Of a stretch of DNA of 54,838 nt, positions 4,778-50,771 are shown piece after piece. The notes below the pieces were generated by a model. It saw only the letters and a list, made by a program, of their open reading frames with translations. It was not told the origin of the DNA and ran no database searches. The position numbers were made by a program, and so were the translations under genes. How positions within the stretch are numbered: position 1 is the first letter of the stretch; each line of letters begins with the position of its first letter. This stretch comes from a virus (taxonomy: Duplodnaviria > Caudoviricetes): IMG/VR virus record IMGVR_UViG_3300032285_003295, positions 1 through 54,838 of that record. The stretch is one strand, 5' to 3'.

Positions 4778-4799
4778 CCGTAGTAATTCTTTATATTTG
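4778..4799 (+). promoter_or_regulatory. Early/host-type promoter CCGTA-N9-TATATTTG
   Basis: TAnnTTTG is the Bacteroidota housekeeping -7 element; same layout at 18981 and 25425; about 15 nt upstream of ATG. Confidence 0.65.
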
Positions 4800-4813
4800 T
4801 TAAAAATATAGAA

Positions 4814-5407
4814 ATGTGGAATAAATCCATCTCCGGATCTTTAAGGCATCCATTAAAAATATTAGAGGACCCCGAATTTTTAGCAATCCCTAATTGGAGC
4901 ATAATCGAAGATCCTTCTGATCTATTTAGGGTTAACTGGGACTCCGCAGATTCACTAGATCCAAACAATCTCACGATACACTCAGACGAAAAGTCATTAA
5001 GAATGGATCTGATCTATTTAAGAATGGCAAAAACATGGGGCGAGAATTCATATTGTAAAAGAATGCAAGTTGGATGCCTGATGGTTAGGGATAAGCTAAT
5101 CATCTCTGACGGATACAACGGATCACCTTCGGGATTTCCAAATGCCTGTGAGGATGAAGATATGAACACACTCCCGTATGTTCTACATGCTGAAGCCAAT
5201 GCTATTACTAAACTAGCTAAGAGCACTCAAAGTTCGGATGGAGCAACCCTATATGTAACCCTATCGCCCTGTTTTGAATGCTCTAAATTAATCATACAAT
5301 CTGGGATCAGAAGGGTAGTATTTTCAGAAGTTTATAGAAAACCTGAATCCCTCCCATTTCTGGCCGAAGCAGGGGTTGAATTAGTAAAAATAAGTAAACC
5401 ATTATAA
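4814..5407 (+). CDS. dCMP deaminase
   Basis: IISDGYNG, HAEANA and PCFEC zinc motifs; about 60 aa N-terminal extension. Confidence 0.93.
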   Translation: MWNKSISGSLRHPLKILEDPEFLAIPNWSIIEDPSDLFRVNWDSADSLDPNNLTIHSDEKSLRMDLIYLRMAKTWGENSYCKRMQVGCLMVRDKLIISDGYNGSPSGFPNACEDEDMNTLPYVLHAEANAITKLAKSTQSSDGATLYVTLSPCFECSKLIIQSGIRRVVFSEVYRKPESLPFLAEAGVELVKISKPL

Positions 5408-5409
5408 TT

Positions 5410-6045
5410 ATGATAGAATTAACGCAGGATTTAAAAAGTAAACAAAAGGAGAAGAACATTCAAAAATTAGCAGAGGAGTTCATTTTAACAAGGAGTGATA
5501 AATCTTTTAAAATGCTATTTGAGAGATTAAGACCGGGGGTATCAAACCATTGCTTTTTGATTCTGAAAGACCAGGAACTTGCTGAGGATGCCTTTCTTAA
5601 CACTATGTCTAAGATTTGGAGTAAGATTGATCAATATGATCTAATCAGAGGTAACTTTTCAACTTGGTGTTATAATATAGCTAGGAATGAATCCCTCCTA
5701 CTTATAAAATCAAGAAAAAGGTATAGTAGCCACCTAGATTCTGATCTAGAGTACCTTTCTTCTAAAAATTCTATAGGTGATCTTGGAGGCCATTATACTT
5801 TAGAAGAAGATCCAAATTATGCTTTTTATGGTGAGGAAAACAAGACAGATGCTGTTTACGAGTCTGTTTTAGATGAGATCAGAACCCTTCCTGAGCTATA
5901 TAGGGATATCATGATAGATCGTGAGATTAATGGGATGAAATACAAGGATATTGCAGAAAAGTATAACATCAAGAAAAGATCAATAGCCACTAGGATAAGA
6001 AGAGCTAGAGGGAGAATACGTAAAAAAATGGACAAGAAACAATAA
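5410..6045 (+). CDS. ECF-type RNA polymerase sigma factor
   Basis: Region 2 LAEDAFLNT..KIW..IDQYD..RGNFSTWCYNIARN; region 4 LPELYRD...GMKYKDIAEKYNI....IATRIRRAR. Confidence 0.88.
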   Translation: MIELTQDLKSKQKEKNIQKLAEEFILTRSDKSFKMLFERLRPGVSNHCFLILKDQELAEDAFLNTMSKIWSKIDQYDLIRGNFSTWCYNIARNESLLLIKSRKRYSSHLDSDLEYLSSKNSIGDLGGHYTLEEDPNYAFYGEENKTDAVYESVLDEIRTLPELYRDIMIDREINGMKYKDIAEKYNIKKRSIATRIRRARGRIRKKMDKKQ

Positions 6046-6063
6046 TCCTTTCTGGCAGTATAA
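6036..6063 (+). promoter_or_regulatory. Middle-class promoter GAAAC-N18-TATAA
   Basis: Bipartite motif with fixed 18-nt spacer shared with 7316, 13075, 20350, 38576. Confidence 0.6.
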
Positions 6064-6077
6064 AAATAAAAGGAGAA

Positions 6078-6506
6078 ATGTTAAGACTTCTTAAAGTTAT
6101 AAAGGAGATAAGACTTTACCGCGAATATCTTAAAACGGTTAAGCAAAAATCTGAAGAATCCCCGTTTTTCACTAGAATGAATTTACGCGTGGATTGGGTA
6201 GGTAGAGTTTATACCGTTGTGAATCTACCCCAACAGGTTATTCAATCTCCGGATCTTCCGAAAGAGGCAAGACCCTCTTTTGTGATGAATGAGATAAAAC
6301 CAATCAATGAGTATTTTAAATCTCTGAACCTAGAGGAGCTAATGACACTTTCGATGGAGTCAGTTAAGGGTACAAACGATGAATCTTATCTGATCGTTTA
6401 TCAATATGTTTTTAGGAATCTTACTATTCTTTGGATCCTTAGATTTTTAGGGGAGTTAGCTATTATTATTTTTGCCCTCGTGAAGTGGGGTCATTTTATT
6501 TTTTAA
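6078..6506 (+). CDS. Hypothetical protein with C-terminal membrane anchor
   Basis: 142 aa ORF; hydrophobic C-terminus ILWILRFLGELAIIIFALV. Confidence 0.7.
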   Translation: MLRLLKVIKEIRLYREYLKTVKQKSEESPFFTRMNLRVDWVGRVYTVVNLPQQVIQSPDLPKEARPSFVMNEIKPINEYFKSLNLEELMTLSMESVKGTNDESYLIVYQYVFRNLTILWILRFLGELAIIIFALVKWGHFIF

Positions 6507-6509
6507 ATT

Positions 6510-7316
6510 ATGGATCAAAGATTACAGTCGGCAAAATCTGATATAGAGAGGAAATTAGAAGTATTTAAAGATAGAAATTTTACTTTTGATGAGCCTACAC
6601 ACACGTACAGGTACGCTGGTAAAAAATTCGATTCTGTAACAACTTTTATCAAAACCTTTAAAGTTCCTTTTGACAGGGAGTATTGGTCAAGAAAAAAAGC
6701 GGATGAAAGAGGTGTAGATCCCTCAGTTATTCTAGAGGAATGGAGTCAGAAGTCAACTAAGGCTATGGGCATAGGGACTAAAGTTCATAAATTTATAGAG
6801 GATTATTTAAGCGGGGATAATCCACCGATGCCCGAAGAGTCTGAAGTAAAAGAGAGGGTTGATAAATTCCTAGAATTTCATAATAGGAAATTAAACGTTT
6901 TCCATCCGTTAAAATCTGAGCTTAAAGTTTTTTCTAAAAGATGGAGATTATCAGGTACGATAGATCAGCCTTTTTTATTCTGGGACGAAAAAAAGAATCT
7001 TCCTTTCCTAGTTATTGGAGATTGGAAAACTAACGGAGAATTTAAAGATGATAATCATCCTAAAGGGAAATATAAAAAACTATTAAGACCTTTTACGCAT
7101 CTGTATGAGAATAACCATAATGAATATTCAATACAGATTAGTTTATACAGATTGATATTAGAGGAAGAGGCAGGGATAGAAACAGAAAGCGGATTTCTAT
7201 GCCATATCGGTCCAGACGGACCCCCTAAATTATACCCAACCAAAGATTTAAGAGAACCACTAAGAGCCTATTTGGAAAATAACAGGACAGAATTTGATAT
7301 TTTTGATATTTCTTAG
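6510..7316 (+). CDS. PD-(D/E)XK exonuclease (RecB/Cas4-like fold, no Fe-S cysteines)
   Basis: FDEPTHTY, SVTTFI, GTKVH, SGTID, IGDWKT, YSIQISLY motifs. Confidence 0.85.
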   Translation: MDQRLQSAKSDIERKLEVFKDRNFTFDEPTHTYRYAGKKFDSVTTFIKTFKVPFDREYWSRKKADERGVDPSVILEEWSQKSTKAMGIGTKVHKFIEDYLSGDNPPMPEESEVKERVDKFLEFHNRKLNVFHPLKSELKVFSKRWRLSGTIDQPFLFWDEKKNLPFLVIGDWKTNGEFKDDNHPKGKYKKLLRPFTHLYENNHNEYSIQISLYRLILEEEAGIETESGFLCHIGPDGPPKLYPTKDLREPLRAYLENNRTEFDIFDIS

Positions 7317-7343
7317 AAACAATTTCTTTATTATAAACTAAAA
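7316..7343 (+). promoter_or_regulatory. Middle-class promoter GAAAC-N18-TAAAA
   Basis: Same bipartite motif and spacing; upstream of ATG 7360. Confidence 0.6.
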
Positions 7344-7359
7344 ATTAAAAAATAAAAAT

Positions 7360-7902: not shown

Positions 7903-7926
7903 TTCGAAACCCGTCGATATACATTT

Positions 7927-7949
7927 AGCCAGGACCTCCTGGCTTTTTT
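7927..7949 (+). terminator. Rho-independent terminator
   Basis: AGCCAGG-ACCT-CCTGGCT-TTTTT. Confidence 0.8.
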
Positions 7950-7966: not shown

Positions 7967-7974
7967 GATATATA
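7967..7974 (+). promoter_or_regulatory. Late-class promoter GATATATA
   Basis: Intergenic, just after terminator, upstream of ATG 7991. Confidence 0.6.
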
Positions 7975-9721: not shown

Positions 9722-9722
9722 A

Positions 9723-10208: not shown

Positions 10209-10259
10209 TAAAACCATCACATTTTTAAATATATACTAAAAAGTTTCCGTCTCTATTCG

Positions 10260-10267
10260 GATATATA
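10260..10267 (+). promoter_or_regulatory. Late-class promoter GATATATA
   Basis: Abuts ATG 10268, suggesting the true start is ATG 10292. Confidence 0.6.
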
Positions 10268-12865: not shown

Positions 12866-13023
12866 GTCGTAACTTTTACTTTGCACCAAAGGGTGAAAAT
12901 CAAAATGCGCCAGGCAAAAAGTTCGTAGATTCTCTAGAGGGTAAACTTAGTAAAGCCCCTACAGGTAAAGAAAATAAACCTGAAGATACAGAGGATTCAG
13001 AAGGACACGAAGATTCTAAATAA
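12862..13023 (+). other. -1 frame extension of 10292..12865 (53 aa: LSRNFYFAPKGENQNAPGKKFVDSLEGKLSKAPTGKENKPEDTEDSEGHEDSK)
   Basis: Open frame with no ATG, entered by -1 slip at TTAAAAAAAAAC; continues the AP repeats; terminator lies after its stop. Confidence 0.7.
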
Positions 13024-13039
13024 TAGCATCATAAAATAT

Positions 13040-13071
13040 AAAGAGAACACAAATTAAGTGTTCTCTTTTTT
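13040..13071 (+). terminator. Rho-independent terminator
   Basis: AAAGAGAACAC-AAATTAA-GTGTTCTCTTT plus T-run. Confidence 0.85.
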
Positions 13072-13074: not shown

Positions 13075-13102
13075 GAAATTTTTTGATGTGTTTGAACTAA
13101 AA
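13075..13102 (+). promoter_or_regulatory. Middle-class promoter GAAAT-N18-TAAAA upstream of late sigma gene
   Basis: Same bipartite motif and spacing, immediately after terminator. Confidence 0.6.
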
Positions 13103-13136: not shown

Positions 13137-13496
13137 ATGGCAAAAGACTATGTTAAAAACAGTGACCTCATGGCAGCTGTTGTAGAATCCAAAAAGCAAG
13201 GAAAGCTAACCCCTGAAACTATTGCAATGTTTACCCTAATGATACAGGGGATTTCCAAAAAAATGGCCTACAAGGATCCTGATGATAAAGATGACTGCAT
13301 GGCTTTTGCTATGGAGGATTTGTGCAAGTATTGGGATAGATTCAATCCTGCAAAATCAAATAACCCATTTGCATACTTTACCCAGATTGCAAAGAATGGA
13401 TTTGCCAAAGGATGGAAAAAACTACATCCACCTAAAAGTCCTAAAACTATTCCGTTTAGCCATATAACTGGAGACGATAACACATACAATGTTTAA
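13137..13496 (+). CDS. Late-transcription sigma factor (T4 gp55-like), minimal 119 aa
   Basis: YVKNSDL N-terminus and RFNPAKSNNPFAYFTQIA signature. Confidence 0.85.
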   Translation: MAKDYVKNSDLMAAVVESKKQGKLTPETIAMFTLMIQGISKKMAYKDPDDKDDCMAFAMEDLCKYWDRFNPAKSNNPFAYFTQIAKNGFAKGWKKLHPPKSPKTIPFSHITGDDNTYNV

Positions 13497-13978: not shown

Positions 13979-14586
13979 AAAAGTACTCTGAATCTGTTTT
14001 AGAATATAAAAATAGTTTTAAAAATACTGCTGACCTAGTTTCTAATACAGATAAAATATTTAAGGAAAAGTACTTCCCACAGGGATCTTCTAATAAAAAA
14101 TTTACCCCTCCGTTCATACCCGGACAAATCTACTCGTTCTACTACAGCACCGAATCTAAATTAGGAAAGGATCGACTTTTTATAAATAGAAATCCTATAG
14201 TTCTTTGCACGGATGTTTTTAAAAACCAAGATTCAGGGACAATTTTAAAGGGGATAGACATAATAACTATACCTCCCGCATATAGAGTTCAGATAATAGC
14301 TAAGATTTTTGATAGCTTCTCTAATACAATAGAGAAAAACGATACATCCTATGATAAAGGAGGAAAAATAGAACCTATATTGCTGAAAGATCAATTTCTG
14401 GAGAGAGCTTTAGCTGGAACTGGGTATAAGAAATCCCTTTTTGGATTTAAAGCTATTTTTATGGAAAAAATAAAGATTCTGGATCTAGAGGATTGGTATA
14501 AACTACCATATCTAAAAGAGTCCTTGATAGAGGGCTTAGATCAGGAGGGGATATATAAGGAATACAAGTCGAAATTAATCGCCTAG
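13975..14586 (+). CDS. DNA end protector-like protein (T4 gp2-like)
   Basis: PGQIYSFYY...NRNPIVL...GID...IPPAYR pattern; adjacent to gp4-like gene. Confidence 0.55.
   Translation: MKKYSESVLEYKNSFKNTADLVSNTDKIFKEKYFPQGSSNKKFTPPFIPGQIYSFYYSTESKLGKDRLFINRNPIVLCTDVFKNQDSGTILKGIDIITIPPAYRVQIIAKIFDSFSNTIEKNDTSYDKGGKIEPILLKDQFLERALAGTGYKKSLFGFKAIFMEKIKILDLEDWYKLPYLKESLIEGLDQEGIYKEYKSKLIA
14550..14557 (+). promoter_or_regulatory. Late-class promoter GATATATA for the portal pair
   Basis: In 3' end of gp2-like gene, about 60 nt upstream of portal ATG. Confidence 0.5.
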
Positions 14587-14616
14587 AAAATACTAAAATA
14601 ATTCAAAGAGAAGTAA

Positions 14617-16227
14617 ATGGCAGGTTTTACAGATAGTACCCCGTCGGGTTCACCGGTAGTTCAGAGAATCAGAGATTCCCTGAAAAAACTGAGCACATTC
14701 GGGATGAAGTATGATGACATGGTTATCAGAAACTCTCAGGCTGTGGGTGTATCTGAAGCTGCTTTTTTGAATAAGAATAAATCGAATGTTGAGGACGAGA
14801 CGATGCTTTGGACCCTAGCCAAGCAGGACATCACCACTAAACAATTCATATCTTATTTTGATAAAGATTACAAGGGAAAAAGAGATTACCTTAGGAAATT
14901 CTCACTAAATCCAGAGGTTGAATGGGTTCTTGATACAATCTGCGATGAATCTATTTCGTATGATCCGTCTAATTTCTTTGCTTATCCTGATTTCCTTGAC
15001 CTAACTGATATTAACGAGAAGGTTAAAGACGAGCTTTATGATATCTATAAAAAGCTATATGATATTTGGGGCTTCTGTGACGATATCACTGCATGGCAAT
15101 ACTTCCGCCAGCTCTTGGTTGATGGATTTCTTTGTTTTGAGATCATATACGATAACACAGGAAAGGAAATAATAGGATTCAAGGAATTGGATCCTGTTAC
15201 AATAATACCTAGCGTTGAAAAGCAAGTAGATGGGTCTTTTTTAAACACATGGATGCAATTCCCCCAAGATCCTAAAAGAAGAAGAATTCTTTATGATCCA
15301 CAAGTAATCTATATTTCTTATGCTAAGGGTAATGCCATATCAAGAGTAAGCTATGTTGAGAGATTAATTAGACCTTATAATATACTTAGAATAATCGAGC
15401 ACACTAGGGTTATTTGGTCCGTAATGAATGCTTCCTTTAGGTTAAAGATGACCGTTCCTATAGGAACTAAATCCCAGCAGAAAGGGATGCAGACGCTTGG
15501 AGAGCTTATGAGTGTGTACAAGGAGGATATGCAACTTAATGATGACACTGGTGAACTCCTTGTAGATGGAAGACCCAAAATTCAATTTTACAAGAACTAT
15601 CTAATGCCTTCCGGTGTTAATGGTACCCCTAGAATAGAGCCTATAACCAATGAAGGACCAAATCTGAATGACACTACCCCTTTAAATTACTTCTTCGATA
15701 AATTTGTTCAGGAATCAAAAGTACCTTCCTCTAGATTCCATGGACCTGATGGCGGAACATCATCCACATATGCTAATGCTGCAGAGGGATTAGATAAAGA
15801 AGAGATTAGATTTTTTAAATTTATATCTAGGCTTAGATCTCTATTTCAAGAGATCCTAACTAAGCCTATGTGGATTCAGATGGTTAAGAAATATCCAAAT
15901 CTGGAAAAAGACTTTATGTTTAAAAGCCAACTTGGTCTTGATTATTTTTCAGATAATCCATTCCGTGTTAATCAGGAGATGGATATTATAAACAAAAGAA
16001 AAGAATCGGTTACCTCTATGCAAGCATTAGTTGGTGATGACGAAAAACCTTTTTTCTCTACTGCTTTTCTTATTGAAAATTTTCTAGGTCTTTCTAATCA
16101 GGATATACAGGCAAACAAAGAAGCAATTAAGAGGAAGGAAGAAGAAAAGAAAAAGGAAGAAAAGAAAGCAGGTAAAGAAGGTGGTGAAGAAGGAGGAGAA
16201 GCAGCAGGGGGAGGAGTAACATTATAA
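14617..16227 (+). CDS. Portal protein 1 (T4 gp20-like)
   Basis: 536 aa; PEVEWVLDTICDE, LLVDG, ELDP, SYVERLIRPYNILRIIE, YFFDKF...VPSSR, EEIRFFKFISRLR. Confidence 0.85.
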   Translation: MAGFTDSTPSGSPVVQRIRDSLKKLSTFGMKYDDMVIRNSQAVGVSEAAFLNKNKSNVEDETMLWTLAKQDITTKQFISYFDKDYKGKRDYLRKFSLNPEVEWVLDTICDESISYDPSNFFAYPDFLDLTDINEKVKDELYDIYKKLYDIWGFCDDITAWQYFRQLLVDGFLCFEIIYDNTGKEIIGFKELDPVTIIPSVEKQVDGSFLNTWMQFPQDPKRRRILYDPQVIYISYAKGNAISRVSYVERLIRPYNILRIIEHTRVIWSVMNASFRLKMTVPIGTKSQQKGMQTLGELMSVYKEDMQLNDDTGELLVDGRPKIQFYKNYLMPSGVNGTPRIEPITNEGPNLNDTTPLNYFFDKFVQESKVPSSRFHGPDGGTSSTYANAAEGLDKEEIRFFKFISRLRSLFQEILTKPMWIQMVKKYPNLEKDFMFKSQLGLDYFSDNPFRVNQEMDIINKRKESVTSMQALVGDDEKPFFSTAFLIENFLGLSNQDIQANKEAIKRKEEEKKKEEKKAGKEGGEEGGEAAGGGVTL

Positions 16228-16236
16228 AAATTAAAA

Positions 16237-17904
16237 ATGGCAGGATTTTTAGACGCATTTAAACCAAACCAGTCCGCTCTTGGAAACATAATCCGGAATA
16301 TTGGAAAAATTTCTAAGTTTGGGATGGAATATGATGATATGGTTGTGAGAAACTCACAAGCAATCGGAAAAACAGAATCTGCTTTTTTTAATCAGCAAGG
16401 AACTGGCTTTACTGAGAATGATGCTTTCTACTGGACTCTTTCATATCAAGACACTAGGGTTAGAAAATACATTGCATACTTTGATAAAGACTATATAGAG
16501 AAAAGAAACTTTCTAAGAAAGTTTTCCCTTAATGGTGAAATAGAATTTATACTAGATACCATAACTGATGAATGTATCTCTTATAACGATAGAAACTTCT
16601 TTGCCACACCTTCTTTTGCCAACCTTAATGATATAAAGGATAAAGTTAAAAACAAAATTACGGACCACTATAATCGTTTATATAACGTCTTTGGATTTCA
16701 GAATGGTGTTTTAGCTTGGCAGTTTTTCAAGCAGTTTTTAGTTGATGGATTTCTTTGCTTTGAGATAATATACGATAACAAGGGTAAGGAGATTATAGGT
16801 TTTAAAGAGCTAGATCCAACCTCAGTGCAACCTGCCGTTGAAAAAATCAGCGAGAGCGAATATGCACAATTTTGGATTCAATATCCAAAGAATCCCCAGA
16901 TGACACGAAAGCTTACCAACGAGCAGATTGTCTATATTTCTTATGCTAAGGGTAATTCAATATCAAGAGTAAGCTACCTGGAAAGACTGGTTAGGTCTTA
17001 TAACATTCTAAGAATAATGGAGAACTCCAGAGTTATTTGGAATGTGATGAATGCCTCTTATAGGCTTAAATTTGTTATTCCAACCGGTAGTCAATCCCAA
17101 CAAAAAGCTTTGCAAACGTTGGGACAATTGATGTCTAATTATAAGGAGGAATATTCACTTAATGATAATTCGGGAGAATTAACGGTTAACGGTAAACCTA
17201 AAGTCCAATTCTATAAAAATTATCTCTTTCCAGAACAAAACGGACAAGCTCCTGATATATCATCTCTAAATCCTGCAGGTCCTGACTTCAATGTAATGGA
17301 CAACGTTCTTTACTTCTTCAATAAATTGAAGATGGATTCTAAAATACCTTATGCTAGATTTGCTTCAAGAGGATCAACTCCTGTAAACTATCAAGCAGGG
17401 ATAGATGCATTAGAAAGAGATGAGGTTAGATTTGAAAAATTCTTAAGAAGACTGAGATCTGTTTTTCAGGAAATCTTAGTTAAACCACTCTATATACAAA
17501 TGTGTTTAGATTTCCCTGAGCTTTCTAAAGATAGAGCATTCAAGGCAAATCTTGGTCTTAATTTCCATAAAGACAGTGAACTTGAGTCTATGATAGAGCT
17601 TGCGAATTATAAAAAGAGAGGAGAATTTATAGCGGGTCTCTTGGAGCTAAAGGTTAAAGTTGGGGAGGAAGAGAAATCTTATTTTGACAATAATTTTTTA
17701 ATTCAGAGATATCTTGGTCTAAATCCAGAACAGACCAGAATTAACGAGGAGTACAAGAAAAGAGAGGCAAAAGAAGCTGAAAAGGCTGGTGCAGCTGGTG
17801 GGGAAGCAGCCGCTGGTGGAGAATCAGCTGCGGGCGGAGAAGCAGCTCCTGCCGCAGGAGAAGCAGCTGCTGGGGGTGGAACAGAAGAAGCTCCTGCCGT
17901 ATAA
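16237..17904 (+). CDS. Portal protein 2 (T4 gp20-like paralog)
   Basis: 555 aa; same motifs (SYLERLVRSYNILRIME, YFFNKL...IPYAR, RDEVRFEKFLRRLR); Ala/Gly/Glu tail. Confidence 0.85.
   Translation: MAGFLDAFKPNQSALGNIIRNIGKISKFGMEYDDMVVRNSQAIGKTESAFFNQQGTGFTENDAFYWTLSYQDTRVRKYIAYFDKDYIEKRNFLRKFSLNGEIEFILDTITDECISYNDRNFFATPSFANLNDIKDKVKNKITDHYNRLYNVFGFQNGVLAWQFFKQFLVDGFLCFEIIYDNKGKEIIGFKELDPTSVQPAVEKISESEYAQFWIQYPKNPQMTRKLTNEQIVYISYAKGNSISRVSYLERLVRSYNILRIMENSRVIWNVMNASYRLKFVIPTGSQSQQKALQTLGQLMSNYKEEYSLNDNSGELTVNGKPKVQFYKNYLFPEQNGQAPDISSLNPAGPDFNVMDNVLYFFNKLKMDSKIPYARFASRGSTPVNYQAGIDALERDEVRFEKFLRRLRSVFQEILVKPLYIQMCLDFPELSKDRAFKANLGLNFHKDSELESMIELANYKKRGEFIAGLLELKVKVGEEEKSYFDNNFLIQRYLGLNPEQTRINEEYKKREAKEAEKAGAAGGEAAAGGESAAGGEAAPAAGEAAAGGGTEEAPAV
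17785..17900 (+). repeat. Low-complexity AAGGE repeats in portal 2 C-terminus
   Basis: AGAAGGEAAAGGESAAGGEAAPAAGEAAAGGG; locally GC-rich. Confidence 0.8.
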
Positions 17905-18970: not shown

Positions 18971-18980
18971 TTTTTAATCT

Positions 18981-19002
18981 CCGTATTTTTTGTTTATCTT
19001 TG
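18981..19002 (+). promoter_or_regulatory. Early/host-type promoter CCGTA-N9-TATCTTTG
   Basis: Bacteroidota TAnnTTTG with the same upstream CCGTA spacing as at 4778. Confidence 0.65.
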
Positions 19003-20349: not shown

Positions 20350-20377
20350 GAAACAACCTTTAAAAATATCTCTAAAA
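20350..20377 (+). promoter_or_regulatory. Middle-class promoter GAAAC-N18-TAAAA
   Basis: Between ligase stop and clamp-loader ATG 20384. Confidence 0.6.
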
Positions 20378-22984: not shown

Positions 22985-23413
22985 ATGCAACTTTTCGATA
23001 TACTAAAACTTTTATTTTCCAATAAGCAGAAGGATTGGGATTCTGTGGGTAATAATGATAAGAACAGGAATTTCTTCATGATTAATAGGATTATGAGCAT
23101 CCAGTTTCCAGTTCAGGCCAATCAATTTAATAAATTGAAAGTTACTCCAACCCCAGTTATTGATTGGTGGCGCGATACCCTCTCTCACAGATTTAATCGA
23201 CCCCCTAAGTGGCTTTATACGAAAGCCAATAAAAAAAGCAAAGATGAAAAGAAGGAAACTAAGGATTTGGAAGAAATAGAAAATTTCATAAGAGATAAAT
23301 ATAGAGTCTCGAAAAGGGATCTCTCCGATTTAAAAAAATTCTATCCCGAAAAATACCTATCCTGGGTTAGCGATGTTTCTGAACAGATAGGTATAAAAAC
23401 TAAGAATATATAG
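22985..23413 (+). CDS. Probable clamp loader small subunit (T4 gp62-like)
   Basis: FFMINRIMS...ANQFN..., KW, IRDKYRVS pattern; same operon as gp44-like gene. Confidence 0.55.
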   Translation: MQLFDILKLLFSNKQKDWDSVGNNDKNRNFFMINRIMSIQFPVQANQFNKLKVTPTPVIDWWRDTLSHRFNRPPKWLYTKANKKSKDEKKETKDLEEIENFIRDKYRVSKRDLSDLKKFYPEKYLSWVSDVSEQIGIKTKNI

Positions 23414-24467: not shown

Positions 24468-24494
24468 GGAACATTTTATTCCTTGAAGCTAAAA
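24468..24494 (+). promoter_or_regulatory. Middle-class promoter variant GGAAC-N17-TAAAA
   Basis: Intergenic, upstream of ATG 24509; spacer 1 nt shorter. Confidence 0.45.
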
Positions 24495-25414: not shown

Positions 25415-25424
25415 TTTTTTTATT

Positions 25425-25446
25425 CCGTAATTTTATTTTATTTTTA
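25425..25446 (+). promoter_or_regulatory. Early/host-type promoter variant CCGTA-N9-TATTTTTA
   Basis: Same layout as 4778 and 18981 with the last base G>A. Confidence 0.5.
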
Positions 25447-26191: not shown

Positions 26192-26228
26192 AAAGCTTTT
26201 CTTTGATATATAAAGAAAAGCTTTTTTT
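26192..26228 (+). terminator. Terminator hairpin with late promoter GATATATA (26205-26212) in its loop
   Basis: AAAGCTTTTCTTT-GATATAT-AAAGAAAAGCTTT-TTTT, perfect 13-bp stem. Confidence 0.7.
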
Positions 26229-29724: not shown

Positions 29725-29732
29725 GATATATA
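29725..29732 (+). promoter_or_regulatory. Late-class promoter GATATATA
   Basis: Intergenic, upstream of protease ATG 29760. Confidence 0.6.
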
Positions 29733-33547: not shown

Positions 33548-33574
33548 AAAACCCCTGAAACTCAGGGGTTTTTT
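33548..33574 (+). terminator. Rho-independent terminator after MCP
   Basis: AAAACCCCTGA-AAC-TCAGGGGTTTTTT. Confidence 0.9.
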
Positions 33575-33608: not shown

Positions 33609-33616
33609 GATATATA
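33609..33616 (+). promoter_or_regulatory. Late-class promoter GATATATA
   Basis: Intergenic, upstream of ATG 33641. Confidence 0.6.
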
Positions 33617-38539: not shown

Positions 38540-38565
38540 AAGGGAGGCTTTGTCCTCCCTTTTTT
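38540..38565 (+). terminator. Rho-independent terminator
   Basis: AAGGGAGG-CTTTGT-CCTCCCTT-TTTT. Confidence 0.85.
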
Positions 38566-38575
38566 ATTAATTGCC

Positions 38576-38603
38576 GAAATTTTGATGTACTTTTGGGATA
38601 TAA
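38576..38603 (+). promoter_or_regulatory. Middle-class promoter GAAAT-N18-TATAA
   Basis: After terminator, upstream of ATG 38619; spacer shares TTTGATGT with the 13075 site. Confidence 0.6.
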
Positions 38604-40622: not shown

Positions 40623-40630
40623 GATATATA
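40623..40630 (+). promoter_or_regulatory. Late-class promoter GATATATA
   Basis: Intergenic, upstream of ATG 40649. Confidence 0.6.
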
Positions 40631-41700: not shown

Positions 41701-41725
41701 AAAAGGTCCAATAGGACCTTTTTTT
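41701..41725. terminator. Bidirectional terminator between convergent genes
   Basis: AAAAGGTCC-AATA-GGACCTTTTTTT. Confidence 0.85.
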
Positions 41726-42299
41726 ATTGTATAAGAACTCTATCTGTCCAAGTTCTCTCTCGTATAAAAATTATTGCTACATACTTAATCCCTGATATAA
41801 CTGGCATTCCCTCGTGTATACTTGTGTGATCTAGCATTCCACTTTCTGTCATATTATCCCATGTTACTAGTTTTCCTCTCTCCGGTTCTACTCTAATCCC
41901 CAGCTGTGGAAAATCTGTTTCCCCACCTTCGAAATCGTCATTTAAGTAAACTAGGGTTGACATCCTTCTGTTACCGCCCTTTGATAGTTGCTCCTGCGTG
42001 TACGATTGCCCTTCATGGAAGAAGTCGTGATGCGGTTTGTATCTTCCCCCTACTGGGTATCTAACTATGGTCAAATCCTCCATGTTAGTGATGGGAGTCT
42101 TTGTTAATTCAGAAATTGCATTAACTATTTTCTTTACTGTGCCGTGGGCCTCATCTAGCCTAATAAAAGCATTTTCTGCTATTCTATAATCTGAGTCTCC
42201 ATCGCCAAGTGTTGTTGCTATTTGATATTTCGGATCTGCCAGATCTATTAACTCTTGACAATCCTCAGGGGTCAAAACGTCACGATATTGATTTACCAT
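41724..42299 (-). CDS. 2OG-Fe(II) oxygenase, prolyl-4-hydroxylase-like
   Basis: RY..GG.YKPHHD, LVYLNDDFEGGETDFP, HEGMPV..G.K. Confidence 0.92.
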   Translation of the reverse strand: MVNQYRDVLTPEDCQELIDLADPKYQIATTLGDGDSDYRIAENAFIRLDEAHGTVKKIVNAISELTKTPITNMEDLTIVRYPVGGRYKPHHDFFHEGQSYTQEQLSKGGNRRMSTLVYLNDDFEGGETDFPQLGIRVEPERGKLVTWDNMTESGMLDHTSIHEGMPVISGIKYVAIIFIRERTWTDRVLIQ

Positions 42300-42309: not shown

Positions 42310-43053
42310 TTAGGGTGATTGCAATTTATTTATCTCTTCTATAAATCTCTCTTTAGAAAGTTTATAAATCTCTGATTCCTCATCAAAATTCTCATATATC
42401 TCAATAACATAGAGACTAGGAAAATGCCCACTATTGGGATTGAACTCTTCTAGAATCTCGTGGTATATGTACTCGTAGCTAAGAGAAAAGAATGGATTTT
42501 TTAGATGTATTTTTTTCATCATAATCATCTCTTTTGACTTCTCTCCTGTTTTTATTTTAATGTTTGCTTTGAAGAAGTAGTTCAATAGCTTATCCGTAAT
42601 CATGTTCCTTATTATTAAAATACCTGATCCTTCTTCTTTACTGTGTGATTCGAATTTTGATTGAATTTTAAAGATCTTTATTTTAGACTCTTCCTCTTTT
42701 AGCATCTCTAGACATATCTCGGAGTATCCATACAGTGTTTCTAGAGATTGCTCAACGATGGCATCCAGTGAATCTTTCTCCTCTTTAGTTATTCTTTTAG
42801 CGCTAAACTTCTCAAAAAATGACTTTTCACTTTTTGTTAGGTATTGGTATATTGGATCCCACTTAGTCATACCATTTTCTTTATAGAGATTCAGTGATTT
42901 TACCAGTCTTGATATGTCCTTAAGGATTGAGAAGCAGGTGTCAGAGTTTAGTCCCTTGCTAGCACTTTTTAAATAGTCTAATAAAATGTACTCCTTTTGC
43001 TCCGAATCTAGGGGATCTTTTAGAAACCACAGGGGGCTCAATTTCTTTTTCAT
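42310..43053 (-). CDS. Hypothetical protein
   Basis: Start likely MKKKLSPLWF (43053), with AATATATA late-like motif on the - strand at 43074-43081. Confidence 0.65.
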   Translation of the reverse strand: MKKKLSPLWFLKDPLDSEQKEYILLDYLKSASKGLNSDTCFSILKDISRLVKSLNLYKENGMTKWDPIYQYLTKSEKSFFEKFSAKRITKEEKDSLDAIVEQSLETLYGYSEICLEMLKEEESKIKIFKIQSKFESHSKEEGSGILIIRNMITDKLLNYFFKANIKIKTGEKSKEMIMMKKIHLKNPFFSLSYEYIYHEILEEFNPNSGHFPSLYVIEIYENFDEESEIYKLSKERFIEEINKLQSP

Positions 43054-43099
43054 TGCCCAAATTTTATATAATCTATATATTTTAACTCGTTGGATAAGG

Positions 43100-43107
43100 G
43101 ATATATA
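43100..43107 (+). promoter_or_regulatory. Late-class promoter GATATATA (back to back with a - strand motif)
   Basis: Upstream of ATG 43126. Confidence 0.55.
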
Positions 43108-43125
43108 CAAGAAAAAGAACTCAGA

Positions 43126-43557
43126 ATGCCAAGAATTTACGACTATAGCTCATTTTCCTCATCAAATACTGGATCTAGTAGAGGCGAATATTCATTCGGT
43201 CTTCCTTTGAAATATGTTGATATCGACATTTACAATAGACCTGAGGAATATGCAAATATAGAGGATGCTAAGGTTTTTATAGAATACTCTGTTAGTCTTG
43301 ATGTTGAAAAAGATGGTATATCTGGAGTAAATTTCTTAGTGAATAGTGTGGAAGTTGAATTCTCTGTGGATGATTATCCAAATCCAGTTAAGCAATTTGA
43401 TATCGACCTAATTCCTGGCAAAACTATAGATATAGGTCAGATGAAATCTGATGTTGGCGAAAATCCAATTCCGACAAATCCAACGGGGATAAAGATAAAC
43501 ATGAACATGTCAACTGACCCCAAGAAATTTGATGTCATCGTTTCATTCGGTTCCTAA
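43126..43557 (+). CDS. Hypothetical protein
   Basis: Start moved to MPRIYDYSSF (43126), downstream of the promoter motif. Confidence 0.65.
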   Translation: MPRIYDYSSFSSSNTGSSRGEYSFGLPLKYVDIDIYNRPEEYANIEDAKVFIEYSVSLDVEKDGISGVNFLVNSVEVEFSVDDYPNPVKQFDIDLIPGKTIDIGQMKSDVGENPIPTNPTGIKINMNMSTDPKKFDVIVSFGS

Positions 43558-44540: not shown

Positions 44541-44569
44541 GAAACAATTCCGTATAATTTTTTCTACAA
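44541..44569 (+). promoter_or_regulatory. Middle-class promoter variant GAAAC-N19-TACAA
   Basis: Intergenic, upstream of ATG 44576; spacer 1 nt longer. Confidence 0.4.
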
Positions 44570-44575: not shown

Positions 44576-44851
44576 ATGGAGATGCACAAAGATTTTTGTT
44601 TGGAGGTGGGTAGTTCTATCATAATTAAGAAGAATAGTGGTAATAAGTGCATGGAGTTTTCTAGACACACTGATCCGGTTTTAGATAACATAGTGGAAAT
44701 GTGGACCTATGACATAAAGAAGGGTAAATCGGGAAAGCCTACATGGTTAATATTAAAAGATCTTCCAGTTTTCTTGAATTCATATTTAGCTTATGGTGAA
44801 TATACAATAGTTGAACCTGGAACAAAACCTATTAAAAAGAGTAAAAAATAA
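44576..44851 (+). CDS. Hypothetical protein
   Basis: 91 aa ORF filling the gap between genes. Confidence 0.6.
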   Translation: MEMHKDFCLEVGSSIIIKKNSGNKCMEFSRHTDPVLDNIVEMWTYDIKKGKSGKPTWLILKDLPVFLNSYLAYGEYTIVEPGTKPIKKSKK

Positions 44852-44856: not shown

Positions 44857-45507
44857 ATGGGGAATTTACTAAAGTCCCTATTTGGGACAAAAAAAGATAA
44901 AAAAATGACATCCAACGAACAATCCACTCAAGATCTTCATAGTAAATACTCAAATCTAGATTTCCAGTGGATTAAAGGGGAAAATCTATCTGCAAATGAA
45001 GTCTTTAAAGGGGTAAGCACAAATGGTGATTTTACTTTTATAGAGTTTCAAAGTGGAAGAAGAATTAATATAGATTTGCTTGATGAATACATGGTGAGTT
45101 TTCCAGCTCTACCTCCGGAGCAGCCTAAGAATCTTCCCGCTCCCAATAAGGAAATCCCAGTATCTAAACCAGACTCTTCAGTAACTGATATAGTTTATGA
45201 AGATGCTAAATCCCCACAAAATGACTCTCCGATATATAAGTTACTAAAGAAGCAGAAAAAGAACATGGTAGAGGTTTCAATTAAGATAAAATTGAATCTT
45301 CCTCCGAAGGATCTTTATAGTGTTCTCCTGAGTTCTTTTGAAGATGCGGAAAGGGAAATAACTGAGTTTGTGTTAGACGGTGTTGATATAGAAAATATTA
45401 AAAATTCTTTGGCTGAGTCTGTGAAAAAATCATATTATACAGATTCACCAAAGCCTTCCTCCGATAAAACTTCTTCTAAGAAAATTAATAAAATAGAAAC
45501 CCCTTAA
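44857..45507 (+). CDS. Hypothetical protein
   Basis: 216 aa, operonic spacing. Confidence 0.7.
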   Translation: MGNLLKSLFGTKKDKKMTSNEQSTQDLHSKYSNLDFQWIKGENLSANEVFKGVSTNGDFTFIEFQSGRRINIDLLDEYMVSFPALPPEQPKNLPAPNKEIPVSKPDSSVTDIVYEDAKSPQNDSPIYKLLKKQKKNMVEVSIKIKLNLPPKDLYSVLLSSFEDAEREITEFVLDGVDIENIKNSLAESVKKSYYTDSPKPSSDKTSSKKINKIETP

Positions 45508-48594: not shown

Positions 48595-48603
48595 TTTAAA
48601 CAA

Positions 48604-49191
48604 ATGGCACTACTAATAGACACAATATCGAAAAATAAATCAGTCTTCAATCCATCGCCGGATTTGAATTCATCAAGATATGGAATATGGGATTTAACAA
48701 AGGCTTCAGTCTCTTTTAATGGTGTTGATCCACAGATTAGTAGTTTTGCTATAGTTCCTGATTATTTTGCAATGAGACCTGATTTGGTGGCAACTCTTAA
48801 AATGGGTGATCAAAATAGAATGGGTGGTCTTTTAAAGTTCAACGGAATAAGCAATCCTTTTGCTGTGGCTCCTGGACAGATCTTAGCCATTCCCACTAAT
48901 CAAACGATTGATGAGATTTTTAGAGCTAAGAAAATAGATGAGCAGAAAGCTCCTGCCTCTAATACTAACACAAATCCTCTTCAGGCTTTCAAGAAAAATC
49001 AAGAGCAGAAGAAGTTTCAGGTTAGTCCTGGTAGAAAAAAATTCTTAGAGGACAAGATTAAAAACAAACCTGATTTAAGTTTGCCTCCTAACGTAGCACA
49101 GCCGAACGATAAACCCGTTCTCAAGAAAGAAGGATTTATTGTCTTTGCTCCTAACTCAGGTGGTGGAGGATTTAATGTACCAATTCAATAA
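48604..49191 (+). CDS. Baseplate wedge protein, LysM-like (T4 gp53-like)
   Basis: MRPDLVA...G...LLKFNGISNPF...GQILAIP. Confidence 0.7.
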   Translation: MALLIDTISKNKSVFNPSPDLNSSRYGIWDLTKASVSFNGVDPQISSFAIVPDYFAMRPDLVATLKMGDQNRMGGLLKFNGISNPFAVAPGQILAIPTNQTIDEIFRAKKIDEQKAPASNTNTNPLQAFKKNQEQKKFQVSPGRKKFLEDKIKNKPDLSLPPNVAQPNDKPVLKKEGFIVFAPNSGGGGFNVPIQ

Positions 49192-49199
49192 TCTGATCT

Positions 49200-50759
49200 A
49201 TGGCAATTGATAAAATACAAATAGTTTCTTCTGCTTTAAATAACATTAAACTTGATGAACTAGTTCAGGTTGATAGAGCTAATGGTTCTTCTGATGTTGA
49301 AACACTTAGGGATAAGGGGGAAACGAGTGAAAAATCTACTGGTCTTTACGTTCCTTTTATTGTTGTAAATGGCTATAATATTACTAAATATTTAACTAAA
49401 TTTTATTTAGACCTTAGTGGGTTTCTTCCCACCGTTAGATTTTCTTTTATAGCGGCAGAGAGTGTTTTCATTTCTGTTAACTACCCAAAAGATGGCGATA
49501 TAGTTTCTGTTTATCTTAGAGCACCTGGTGATTTTTACAAACCATTCCGAATGGATTTTAATGTACTTAGCGTAGCTAGTGAGCCAACCAGTAGATACGC
49601 AGAAGGAGGTGTAGATCATAAAGCTAAAGGAATTAATTTAAGATTCACGATAACTGGGGAATGTAGAATTCCTGGTCTATATACGCAAAGGATTAAATCA
49701 TTCAGCAACCTGTCCTCGAATGATTGCTTGCTGGAGGTTTCACAAGATCTCAATTTAGGATTTGCCTCTAACGAAAAGACAACAGATGATAAAATGACAT
49801 GGATTTGTCCATCTTACTCCTATTATGACTTTATTCAGGAAGTTGCTATCAGAGCTTATAAGGATGATCATTCAAGCTTCTTCGATTGCTGGATAGATTC
49901 ATATTACACTTTAAATTTTGTGAATCTGGGTAACCAATTTTCATATACCAAATCACCTGATCAGAAGGCGGTCTTCCTTCCTGGAAACAGCCAAGCAGGT
50001 CTTAGCGTTAGTAATGCGATACCAGGAACACCCGACACCGACCCTGTAGAAATGTCACTATTGATAACAAATCTAACTGGATATGGTACAGTACCATATT
50101 TTCCAATCGGATATACTCTAACATCAAGAGCGGGGAATAACACTAATAGGATGGGGTACGTTAACGAGATTGGATTTTACGATGAAACATCAGATAAAAA
50201 AGATCCATCCCAAAAATATGTAAAGTATGACGTAGAGACTCAAACTCCTGAAAGTGTTTCAACAGGTATGATACTTCAGAAAGGAAGAGCTAGAGAAAAC
50301 AACTACAAGGACGAGAAGAGAATAGAATGGCACGGAGTTTTAAACACGAGAACATCGGATACCTCCGGGGGAGTTCACGAAAACTTTCTTCATGCTAAAG
50401 TTCAAAATCTAATCAATGTAAATGATGTTACTAAGATGACCCTAGAAGTTGAGCTTATGAATTATTTTCCTGGGATCTATAGAGGACAAGTTCTTCCTGT
50501 CCAACTCTATGCTTTTGATAACGATGTGAGAGCTCAGAATGTTGGAGCTCAGGGAAACAAGCAGACCAACACTAGCGGACAGCCAACGCTTGATGTTTTT
50601 CTTTCTGGAAATTACGTGGTAATGGGAATGAGCGTTTATTGGAGCTATGGAGGAGTAATGAGGCAGAGTTTAACTCTCGCTAAAAGAGAATGGACCGCTA
50701 ATTCATCCGGATCTCTTCCGAAAGCTTTCCCCGTTTCTTTAACCAAGGGGATATTCTAA
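49200..50759 (+). CDS. Baseplate hub protein (gp27/GpD-like)
   Basis: 519 aa between gp53-like and gp5-like genes; C-terminal LSGNYVVMGM...QSLTLAKREW typical of hubs. Confidence 0.55.
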   Translation: MAIDKIQIVSSALNNIKLDELVQVDRANGSSDVETLRDKGETSEKSTGLYVPFIVVNGYNITKYLTKFYLDLSGFLPTVRFSFIAAESVFISVNYPKDGDIVSVYLRAPGDFYKPFRMDFNVLSVASEPTSRYAEGGVDHKAKGINLRFTITGECRIPGLYTQRIKSFSNLSSNDCLLEVSQDLNLGFASNEKTTDDKMTWICPSYSYYDFIQEVAIRAYKDDHSSFFDCWIDSYYTLNFVNLGNQFSYTKSPDQKAVFLPGNSQAGLSVSNAIPGTPDTDPVEMSLLITNLTGYGTVPYFPIGYTLTSRAGNNTNRMGYVNEIGFYDETSDKKDPSQKYVKYDVETQTPESVSTGMILQKGRARENNYKDEKRIEWHGVLNTRTSDTSGGVHENFLHAKVQNLINVNDVTKMTLEVELMNYFPGIYRGQVLPVQLYAFDNDVRAQNVGAQGNKQTNTSGQPTLDVFLSGNYVVMGMSVYWSYGGVMRQSLTLAKREWTANSSGSLPKAFPVSLTKGIF

Positions 50760-50763
50760 AAGA

Positions 50764-50771
50764 GATAAATA
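50764..50771 (+). promoter_or_regulatory. Late-class promoter GATAAATA
   Basis: AGATAAATATAATAA, identical to the context at 498-512. Confidence 0.6.

Follow-up and report, generated by a model that had tools for sequence, protein, structure and literature searches.

The 54,838-base DNA examined here, the whole of IMG/VR virus record IMGVR_UViG_3300032285_003295 (Duplodnaviria; Caudoviricetes) and hereafter referred to as the window, carries three classes of promoter-like motif that are real and conserved. Each class recurs ahead of orthologous genes, in as many as 63 distinct relatives, and persists there though the flanking sequence diverges. Class I has the consensus A-T7-atcC-CG-N11-TAhhTTT(G/A), class II reads G(A/G)AAC-N17-19-TAnA(A/T) with a peak at N18, and class III is the box GATATATA. 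From their placement, and from the phage sigma-factor genes that lie behind them, we infer that the motifs are promoters, that they act in a temporal order, and which sigma reads which class.

In the relay favoured here, which as a whole is held with modest confidence, the host sigma-A, a phage-encoded sigma of the extracytoplasmic function (ECF) type and a homologue of the T4 late sigma gp55 would act in succession. Host RNA polymerase with host sigma-A would start class I through the Bacteroidota -7 element and so drive the early genes, namely many small open reading frames (ORFs), nucleotide-metabolism genes, and the genes for the ECF-type sigma and for a further, sigma-A-like sigma. Class II, a -35/-10 type promoter (G(A/G)AAC-N17-18-TAnAAt), would most likely be read by the phage ECF-type sigma and would drive replication and recombination genes together with the gp55-like gene. 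Class III GATATATA, a -10-only element of the TATA type, would be read by the truncated gp55-like sigma and would drive virion genes, also from boxes embedded in ORFs. A cascade from host sigma to ECF sigma to gp55 had been proposed in the initial annotation of this DNA; its wiring holds, but a third phage sigma is present in all five complete relatives, and the relay is therefore likely to involve three phage sigmas, not two.

The window, its relatives and the three motif classes

The window has a G+C content of about 35%, carries nearly all of its genes on the + strand and uses the standard genetic code. Stop-codon recoding of the Lak type was considered and rejected, the stops being 45 TAA, 6 TAG and 5 TGA and the ORFs being open under table 11. 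PHROG and Pfam scans reveal a T4-like myovirus module comprising a pair each of tail-tube and portal paralogues, the end of a tail sheath gene, a tape-measure-like ORF, a prohead protease, the major capsid protein and a gp5-like baseplate hub; intermixed with these virion genes are those for dCMP deaminase, DNA ligase, clamp loader, guanylate kinase, exonucleases and a UvdE-like nuclease. Among named phages, the huge phage LR756500 and the Lak megaphages of Prevotella come closest, at capsid identities of 41-42%. A megablast search of 10 kb of the window against a phage collection gave no match, nor did searches of that collection turn up a cultured phage belonging to this clade, and Rfam and tRNA scans of the window likewise returned none. 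Closer relatives number in the hundreds in IMG/VR, where the ECF-type sigma is 67-98% and the gp55-like protein 82-96% identical, on contigs that reach 434 kb. Since the five relatives rated complete run from 319 to 434 kb, the window amounts to about one sixth of a 320-430 kb genome, and it is best explained as a fragment of a T4-like "huge" phage, 320-430 kb in size, with a Bacteroidota host.

Every one of the 23 site coordinates in the initial annotation carries the string given for it. Its patterns were compared in the window with 200 dinucleotide shuffles, and, because they had been fitted to this very sequence, they were also tested on independent material. Orthologues of 57 window proteins were placed by tblastn in 262 loci, and the 130-150 nt upstream of each were collapsed to distinct sequences and scanned, leaving out hits starting past query residue 70, hits at locus ends and duplicates. 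The conservation counts given below are distinct upstream sequences with the motif over the total number; the background rate in random 150-nt windows of the same loci is 0.7% for class I, 7.2% for class II and 4.8% for class III. Three complete relatives, G001 (319 kb), G002 (373 kb) and G005 (348 kb), were scanned as well, with genes called by a simple ORF rule.

The class I pattern CCGTA-N9-TAnnTTT[GA] is found three times on the + strand of the window and not at all on the - strand, against a shuffle mean of 0.01 and a maximum of 1. Upstream of genes in the three complete relatives, CG-N(n)-TAhhTTT[GA] peaks at N11, with 24 sites in G001, 35 in G002 and 34 in G005, whereas any other spacing yields 0-6 and the coding control 0.2-2.1. 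The logo of 91 sites reads A-T7-a-t-c-C-CG-N11-TA-t-a-TTT-G-c. Its T7 tract is 91-97% T and the preceding A stands at 84%, and neither was imposed by the search pattern. All four class I sites of the window fit TAhhTTT[GA], three of them ending in G, which is also the last base in 79% of the 91 sites of the relatives.

On the + strand of the window there are 11 copies of the class III box GATATATA and on the - strand none (shuffle mean 2.25, maximum 6); the relaxed form GATA[TA]ATA is found 15 times and once, respectively (shuffle mean 6.0, maximum 15). In G001, GATATATA is the top enriched upstream 8-mer, with 42 observed and 0.8 expected; 34 of its 43 + copies and 10 of its 12 - copies lie at most 80 nt ahead of a gene that runs in the same direction, in zones that make up 9.7% of the genome. 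It is a -10-only element, with no conserved upstream positions. All 13 class III sites of the initial annotation are conserved, at ratios from 18/25 to 55/55.

For class II the case rests on spacing, position and conservation, because its count in the window is weak and its logo poor. The string GAAA[CT]-N18-TA[AT]AA is found 11 times on the + and twice on the - strand against a shuffle mean of 1.76 and a maximum of 6, in a pattern that was itself fitted to the data, while the broad form G[AG]AAC-N17-19-TAnA[AT] occurs 12 times against a mean of 7.3, a count reached by 19 of 300 shuffles. The logo holds little information outside the imposed positions. Furthermore, GAAAC is frequently found next to the preceding gene's stop codon or overlapping it (TAGAAAC, TAAGAAAC), and coding or termination context could account for part of its conservation. 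These points all weigh against a promoter class, and they raise the question as to whether class II is a by-product of a stop codon followed by GAAAC and of TAnAA in A-rich leaders, TAnAA being common in leaders that are 55% A, which would leave classes I and III as the only promoters. Yet G[AG]AAC-N(n)-TAnA[AT] peaks at N18 in all three complete relatives (13 in G001, 17 in G002 and 18 in G005, with shoulders at N17 and N19), whereas counts at most other spacings stay at 1-9 (with up to 11 at N17) and those of the coding control at 1-5; such a peak is not expected from composition. Class II sites also stand after terminators and far from stop codons, as at 13075; they are kept where the flanks diverge (58/60, 46/50 and 10/10); and GAAAC-N17 is found joined to GATATATA in G001 and G002. 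The by-product explanation is thus very improbable. Class II is conserved as class II in most orthologues at six of its seven listed sites, from 11/18 to 58/60.

The composite sites, GAAAC-N17-GATATATAA, in which the class II -35 element is combined with a class III box, lie at 165723 in G001 and at 203097, 204725 and 213684 in G002, and may be active in both the middle and the late phase.

In the complete relatives, the median distance from motif to start codon is 33 nt for class I, 26.5 nt for class II and 31 nt for class III. Shine-Dalgarno-like sequences precede 6 of 54 genes, and the leaders are 55% A. The classical sigma-70 consensus (TTGACA/TATAAT) is not enriched in the window (73 vs 68.1, 60 vs 63.5 and 37 vs 44.7), and a fourth conserved promoter class was not found by k-mer and dyad enrichment or on reading 212 upstream regions of G001. 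One G001-specific repeat with a hairpin, TAAAACTTCCCACTTGTAGTAAGTGG, is present in eight copies at about 91.7-102.2 kb before small ORFs, mostly 32-37 nt (in one case 144 nt) from them, and is absent from G002, G005 and the window.

The genes behind the motifs differ by class. In the window, class I precedes the deaminase and ECF sigma genes, the DNA ligase, a 3'-5' exonuclease and a thymidylate-kinase-like gene. About 20 class I sites are clustered in one region of G001, before arrays of small ORFs, and the 31 class I genes of G005 have a median length of about 140 aa; among the longer ones, 10 of 14 were sampled and encode a Lon-like protease, an endonuclease and a nucleotidase-like protein, the other seven being unknowns. 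Class I is taken as the early class because of its housekeeping -7 element, these small-ORF arrays, and the position of both larger phage sigma genes behind it. Class II precedes ORFs 6078, 7360, 44576 and 44857, the clamp-loader unit, the UvdE-like nuclease, and the gp55-like gene with its gp4- and gp2-like neighbours. A sample of 10 of the 20 class II genes of G005 contains a UvsX-like recombinase, a DNA polymerase, the large subunit of topoisomerase II and a single-stranded-DNA-binding protein, and also a clamp-loader-like ATPase, a methyltransferase-like protein, a glycosyltransferase and a minor coat protein. Class III precedes the tail tube, the tape-measure-like ORF, the portal, the protease with the capsid gene behind it, and several large ORFs of no assigned function; the conserved boxes before tail tube, portal and protease agree with the earlier claim that structural genes carry this class. 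Against a purely virion-related late class stands a sample of 10 of the 38 class III genes of G005, made up of an endolysin-like, a tail-fibre-like and a membrane protein, a nucleotide pyrophosphohydrolase and six unknowns. Outside the window, therefore, the label "late" is less backed by annotation.

Phage sigma factors and the classes they may read

The ECF-type sigma gene (5410-6045, + strand, as are all features below unless stated otherwise; 211 aa) begins 2 nt behind the dCMP deaminase gene (4814-5407; PF00383 8.8e-24, phrog_174 2.4e-51), the first gene of a class I unit whose upstream site is conserved, so that its initial placement in a class I operon stands. The protein matches Sigma70_r2 (1.3e-10) and r4_2 (2e-11) and consists of regions 2 and 4 only, with neither r1.2 nor r3 in Pfam. 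Among curated models it passes that of the superfamily, TIGR02937, alone (69.3 bits vs a cutoff of 42.9); its best match, TIGR02985 Sig70_bacteroi1, is below the cutoff (78.9 vs 126.4 bits), sigma_PG0214 gives 73.5 bits with a cutoff of 130, and it belongs to no curated ECF subfamily. The closest solved homologue is SigW of Bacillus subtilis (8e-10). The recognition helix in region 4.2, ATRIRRAR (KTRIHRGR in SigW), is invariant in alignment A2 and conserved to at least 95% in 60 distinct orthologues, down to 33% identity.

The gp55-like gene (13137-13496; 119 aa; phrog_234 4.1e-16) lies behind a terminator (13040-13068) and a class II site (13075) conserved in 46/50 orthologues, and the order originally described thus recurs among the relatives. 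The only PDB match of its product is T4 gp55 (7d7c_F, 2.2e-4), aligned to residues 9-128 of 185, and therefore the protein lacks the C-terminal segment, which in T4 gp55 binds the sliding clamp (in the part of PMC2988020 available to us). Furthermore, a gp45-type clamp (PF09116, PF02916) was found in none of the five complete relatives with models run without a positive control. With the clamp-binding end absent and no such clamp found, both of which count against a straightforward gp55 reading, the T4 late mechanism cannot simply be assumed. Class III is nevertheless very probably read by the gp55-like sigma, since, like the T4 late promoters, it is an 8-bp, TATA-type, -10-only box that precedes virion genes.

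All five complete relatives (L263-L267, equivalent to G001-G005) encode three sigma-like proteins: the ECF-type sigma, the gp55-like sigma, and a sigma of about 300 aa that has regions 1.2, 2, 3 and 4 and is encoded outside the window. More than 100 homologues of the ~300-aa protein were found. Nearly all of its best 80 cellular matches are from Bacteroidota, over the full length and at 35-41% identity, with the caveat that the scan patterns were derived from motifs shared by Bacteroidota sigma-A. The ECF and sigma-A-like proteins are both nearest to Bacteroidota families. Compared with six Bacteroidota primary sigmas, the ~300-aa sigma has the same N-terminus, MRQ(F/L)KI, and the same GFKFIS(F/Y)AVW block, but it has H and K in place of the host W and Q in the -10 recognition helix. 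We take these to be W434 and Q437 in E. coli sigma-70 numbering, which touch the -12 base. Its region 4.2 helix, which by analogy with E. coli sigma-70 presumably touches the -35 box, is altered as well, reading SSERIRQI, SLETVRSR, TGETVRIR and SGENIRVK in four phages where the host has TRERVRQI. The gene has a class I site upstream in four of the five relatives and a class II-like site in the fifth. No relative with only one of the two larger sigmas was found, and the Lak phages and LR756500 have all three types.

Because four sigmas, that of the host and three from the phage, face three classes, the pairing of the ECF sigma with class II is indirect and has a live rival. ECF promoters typically carry AAC in the -35 box, and tGAAAC is the sequence read by sigma-W, according to the portion of PMC5758882 available to us, in agreement with the original statement that ECF sigmas read -35 boxes containing AAC. 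The invariant 4.2 helix of the ECF sigma, which resembles that of SigW, matches the invariant GAAAC and favours the ECF sigma as the class II reader. Three observations weigh against this pairing. The ECF gene lies behind class I, not class II, and is thus without autoregulation; in most ECF systems, the ECF gene is preceded by its own promoter class. No recognisable anti-sigma is found beside it with Pfam, PHROG and NCBIfam on the next gene. That gene (6078-6506), which follows the sigma gene directly and lies behind class II, encodes a conserved 142-aa protein with a hydrophobic C-terminal tail and no match in the same three collections; its product could be a membrane-anchored partner or an anti-sigma. 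Finally, the class II -10 element (TAnAAt, N17 after GAAACA) resembles the hexamer of group 1-3 sigma-70-type promoters and not the short CGT-type -10 of ECF sigmas.

The last observation makes the sigma-A-like protein a credible reader of class II, in a relay running from host sigma-A to the phage sigma-A-like sigma and then to gp55. The ECF sigma would then act elsewhere, on host genes, on a small unrecognised regulon, or by competition with host ECFs. The presence of the ~300-aa sigma in all five complete relatives, behind class I in four, its complement of regions 1.2, 2, 3 and 4, its altered -12 contacts (W434 to H and Q437 to K, in the numbering assumed above) and 4.2 helix, and the classical group 1-3 geometry of GAAACA-N17-TAnAAt are all in keeping with such an arrangement. 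RpoD-like sigmas are moreover known in T4-like jumbo phages: Iyer et al. (2021) describe minimal and RpoD-like sigmas and gp33 there, and the term "ECF" is absent from the portion of that text available to us (PMC7824862). On the other hand, the 4.2 helix of the ~300-aa sigma varies among genomes that share the invariant G(A/G)AAC, whereas the helix of the ECF sigma is invariant and SigW-like; AAC in the -35 box is an ECF hallmark (PMC5758882, as far as its available text goes); and no fourth conserved motif was found that would serve the ECF sigma, the one extra repeat being specific to G001. Together, these observations make the sigma-A-like sigma an unlikely, if serious, candidate, and on balance the ECF sigma is the probable reader of class II.

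The initial annotation further held that a phage ECF sigma replaces the MotA/AsiA middle control of T4. Neither AsiA nor MotA was detected in the five complete relatives at E <= 0.1 by a search that finds both in T4 (2.3e-43 and 3.2e-63), and that half of the proposal stands; the other half depends on the pairing of the ECF sigma with class II, with its rival as just described.

The first step of the relay raises a related question. The Bacteroidota housekeeping -7 element is TAHHTTTG, and in Flavobacterium johnsoniae the -33 element is weak, with AT-rich sequence upstream (PMC6847099, in its available part). The TAnnTTTG of the initial annotation therefore does match the -7 element, but the canonical -33 TTTG is absent from class I, its place being occupied by the T7 tract, and TTTG-N18-21-TAnnTTTG has a single match on the + strand of G001. 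Moreover, CG at N11 shows no peak in 219 kb around 80 Bacteroidota rpoD genes (6 occurrences, range 4-13). Both facts weigh against host sigma-A as the main reader of class I, and it may not be.

The cultured Chryseobacterium phage MA9V-1 (OR050627), whose host is C. indologenes, has CG-N11-TAhhTTT at seven sites in 40 kb, against 0-2 at other spacings. It carries a gp55 homologue and a 387-aa sigma gene behind a CG-N11-TAhhTTT site, this being a different large sigma that is only marginally similar to the ~300-aa protein (E 0.001). MA9V-1 lacks GATATATA; by eye, its late boxes are like GTATA(A/C)(A/T)A.

Since the CG peaks in MA9V-1 and not in Bacteroidota rpoD regions, a phage-specific reader or helper of class I is possible. 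Class I might then be mainly phage-specific and read by the sigma-A-like sigma, with T7 and CG as the discriminator and host sigma-A providing a weak first round. This would alter the first step of the relay and suits both proposals for the reader of class II. The CG fixed at N11, with 24-35 such sites in each genome, its lack of a peak around the Bacteroidota rpoD genes, the missing -33 TTTG, and the recurrence of the spacing in the distant MA9V-1 (7 vs 0-2), where a large sigma gene lies behind such a site, all point in this direction, and a sigma-A-like gene behind class I would provide positive feedback. Conversely, the first transcripts need a host holoenzyme unless a sigma is injected, the promoters of F. 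johnsoniae likewise have a weak -33 and an AT-rich upstream region (PMC6847099, same portion), the Bacteroidota comparison sample is small and mostly not promoter DNA, and the similarity between the MA9V-1 and ~300-aa sigmas is marginal (E 0.001). Some host holoenzyme must start class I, and a mainly phage-specific class I is regarded as doubtful.

A four-sigma relay is a further, less likely possibility. Host sigma-A would start class I, and the promoters of that class, marked by T7 and CG, would then pass to a phage sigma-A copy whose -12 contact and -35 helix are rebuilt; an ECF sigma without an anti-sigma would read GAAAC-N17-TAnAAt; and a truncated, clamp-independent gp55 would read GATATATA, including ORF-embedded boxes kept by selection on the DNA itself. 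These embedded boxes would yield nested products, the protease gene giving for example a scaffold-like protein.

Sites and genes along the window

The class I site before the deaminase gene (4766-4799) consists of the T-tract, CCG (CG at 4779), N11 and TATATTTG (4792-4799), 35 nt from the start codon; 36/60 orthologues have it at exactly N11, and a fraction of 0.84 of 61 at N10-13. A second site (18971-19002), with T-tract, CCG, N11 and TATCTTTG, lies 36 nt before the DNA ligase gene and is kept in 31/45 orthologues. The third (25415-25446), with T-tract, CCG, N11 and TATTTTTA, stands 34 nt before the 3'-5' exonuclease gene and is confined to three close relatives among 15 examined. Thus, of the class I sites originally listed, those at 4778 and 18981 are conserved, while that at 25425 is a feature of a few close relatives. 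The fourth (38562-38603), listed as class II at 38576, follows a terminator (38540-38561) and precedes the thymidylate-kinase-like gene. It does carry the class II string GAAAT-N18-TATAA, conserved in 36/49 orthologues, but class I fits too (CG at 38575, N11, TACTTTTG; 14/49), and the two overlap; relatives carry class I, class II, or I followed by II.

The class II sites lie at similar positions before their genes. At 6036-6063, GAAAC-N18-TATAA overlaps the last codons of the sigma gene with its GAAAC and stands 42 nt before ORF 6078 (54/63), and at 7316-7343, GAAAC-N17-CTAAAA is found 44 nt before ORF 7360 (58/60). The site ahead of the gp55-like gene (13075-13102; GAAAT-N17-CTAAAA) is 62 nt from it, with the 46/50 conservation already given, and that of the clamp loader (20350-20377; GAAAC-N17-CTAAAA) is 33 nt from a gene starting at about 20383 (42/47). 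GGAAC-N16-CTAAAA at 24468-24494 lies 41 nt before the UvdE-like endonuclease gene (Pfam UvdE 4.7e-10; 11/18), and GAAAC-N18-TACAA at 44541-44569 lies 35 nt before ORF 44576 (10/10). Two class II-like sites are additions to the original list: GGAAC-N18-TAAAA at 44819-44846, 38 nt before ORF 44857 (40/43), and GAAAT-N18-TAAAA at 14571, before the first portal paralogue at 14617 (43/53).

Among the class III sites, the variant GATAAATA is found at 499-506, 17 nt before the first tail-tube paralogue (35/39), at 23966-23973, 13 nt before ORF 23979 (24/33), and at 50764-50771, 22 nt before an 802-aa ORF (18/25). A further GATAAATA at 23294 is not conserved (0/40 for GATATATA and 7/40 for the relaxed pattern). 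The variant AATATATA occurs at two places that the initial annotation had not listed, 3016-3023, 28 nt before the tape-measure-like ORF (28/29), and 23405-23412, 12 nt before ORF 23417 (39/43); a third unlisted AATATATA, at 10228, is paired with GATATATA at 10260, with the conserved AAAGTTTC between them, in a region (10228-10267) before the 865-aa ORF (54/54). GATATATA itself precedes ORF 7991 by 24 nt (7967-7974; 55/55), the prohead protease gene (phrog_207) by 35 nt (29725-29732; 34/34), ORF 33641 by 32 nt (33609-33616, after a terminator at 33548-33572; 44/48), ORF 40649 by 26 nt (40623-40630; 43/43) and the ATG at 43126 by 26 nt (43100-43107; 45/45). At 26205 it is situated in the loop of a hairpin (26192-26224) before ORF 26229 (17/17).

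Four class III boxes are embedded in ORFs. The box at 14550, within the end of the upstream ORF and before the portal paralogue at 14617 (50/53; 43/44 by projection), forms a region of 14550-14598 with the class II-like site, and its counterpart in L080 and L146 lies in an intergenic spacer. That at 26971-26978 lies within the end of ORF 26229, 68 nt before an 886-aa ORF (14/14 and 16/16 in two counts). The remaining two stand within the protease ORF (30395-30402; 43/43) and within ORF 44857 (45231-45238, absent from the original list; 43/45), compared with 0/49, 0/48 and 0/47 at control positions inside ORFs. An in-frame ATG at 30471, after the first of these boxes, would allow the C-terminal 423 aa of the 660-aa protease ORF (to 31742) to be made as a nested product. 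By analogy with lambda C/Nu3, an arrangement with an internal scaffold, this product may be a scaffold expressed from an internal late promoter. After the box at 45231, an in-frame ATG at 45265 would yield an 80-aa C-terminal product of a 216-aa ORF (region 45231-45507).

Strong hairpin terminators stand directly before promoter-like sites at 7927, 13040, 26192, 33548 and 38540. The terminator-like hairpin with a T run at 7927-7944 is found at the same place in relatives, and that at 13040-13068, with 11 pairs and a T run, is conserved in them. In the hairpin at 26192-26224 (14 pairs and a T run), whose loop holds the class III box, a terminator and a late promoter-like site are superimposed. 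Start codons were revised to about 20383 for the clamp loader, to about 10292 for the 865-aa ORF, and from 43090 to 43126 for the ORF behind the box at 43100.

This last box belongs to a divergent region (43040-43126), in which GATATATA at 43100 faces the + strand gene, while two - strand genes (42310-43110 and the 2OG-Fe oxygenase-like 41724-42299) have AATATATA (43081) and a class II-like site (43045) facing them on their own strand. The two neighbouring portal paralogues (14617-17904) both match phrog_213 (4e-59 and 1.5e-64), and the two neighbouring tail-tube paralogues (516-1662) both match phrog_32623. Just before the tape-measure-like gene, an ORF in another frame (2704-3015; region 2704-3043) overlaps the end of a 362-aa ORF, possibly a tail-chaperone frameshift arrangement. 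The roughly 160 nt that follow the 865-aa ORF (12866-13030) stay open in another frame, with low-complexity, coding-like sequence but no start codon, and could be a frameshifted extension or a decayed end.

Comparison with known transcription systems

To our knowledge, how huge phages programme their transcription has been worked out only for the phiKZ-like and AR9-like ones, which have their own polymerases; for T4-like huge phages infecting Bacteroidota, a clade to which the Lak megaphages belong, we know only of gene lists. The present analysis provides conserved promoter-like logos for three classes, with some 25-65 sites each per genome, and a proposed wiring diagram that ties these classes to three phage sigma genes. 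With the logos, it should be possible to predict which genes are early, middle or late in hundreds of uncultured genomes, and the sigmas and their sites are candidate orthogonal sigma/promoter pairs for Bacteroidota genetics. The class I architecture shared with the cultured Chryseobacterium phage may make part of the scheme testable at the bench, and the question is raised of how a gp55 without its clamp-binding end acts.

Phage sigma cascades, gp55 late boxes and their variants, RpoD-like phage sigmas and ECF sigmas are all of known kinds. The literature searched, which did not extend to supplements or to many subscription journals, revealed no report of their combination, of the three logos, of the early promoter with a fixed CG, of the truncated gp55 or of late boxes embedded in ORFs, and no paper on promoter classes or a sigma relay in Bacteroidota huge phages.

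Among phages, the Lak megaphages and LR756500 (Al-Shayeb et al. 2020) are the closest comparison, with capsid identities of 41-42%, ECF-type sigmas 27-34% and gp55-like proteins 42-50% identical, and all three sigma types present; the window, unlike the Lak phages, keeps to the standard code. A 40-kb stretch of LR756500 around gp55 shows no evident copies of the three motifs, which therefore appear to belong to the present clade and not to all Lak-like phages.

Class I resembles the Bacteroidota sigma-A promoters in its -7 TAhhTTTG and in leaders without a Shine-Dalgarno sequence (PMC6847099, in its available part), and it differs from them in having T7 in place of TTTG and a fixed CG 11 nt upstream of the -7 element. 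Class II shares its GAAAC -35 with the promoters of B. subtilis sigma-W (tGAAAC/CGTA), whose recognition helix is similar to that of the phage ECF sigma. In contrast to sigma-W promoters, the -10 of class II is TAnAAt and not CGTA, and the ECF gene is phage-encoded, without autoregulation or a recognisable anti-sigma. As in T4 middle transcription under MotA/AsiA, the middle class serves replication and recombination genes and the late-sigma gene; unlike there, class II has its own -35, GAAAC, and presumably a dedicated phage sigma, with AsiA and MotA missing from the five relatives.

T4 late transcription uses gp55, gp33 and the gp45 clamp on the 8-bp TATAAATA, and variants of this late box have been described in silico in other T4-like phages (PMC2988020, in the part available). 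A gp55 homologue and an 8-bp, TATA-type, -10-only box before virion genes are common to both systems (same source, same part). Here, however, the box is GATATATA, the T4 box TATAAATA is not enriched in the window (1 on the + and 5 on the - strand, shuffle mean 4.1), and the gp55-like protein has 119 aa and lacks the clamp-binding C-terminus.

The closest parallel to the relay itself is the cascade of SPO1, which runs from host sigma-A to gp28 and then to gp33/34 (PMC13401047 and PMC9429907, each in its available part). In SPO1, successive phage sigmas redirect the host core polymerase, as they would here, and in both the gene for each next sigma lies behind the preceding class, in the window the ECF gene behind class I, and the gp55-like gene behind class II. 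Unlike in SPO1, the late factor is a homologue of T4 gp55 and not gp33/34, the host is a member of the Bacteroidota with the -7 element TAnnTTTG, and a sigma-A-like sigma is added. The proposed logic is that of an SPO1 relay combined with late control of the T4 type, in a host phylum whose promoters follow rules of their own.

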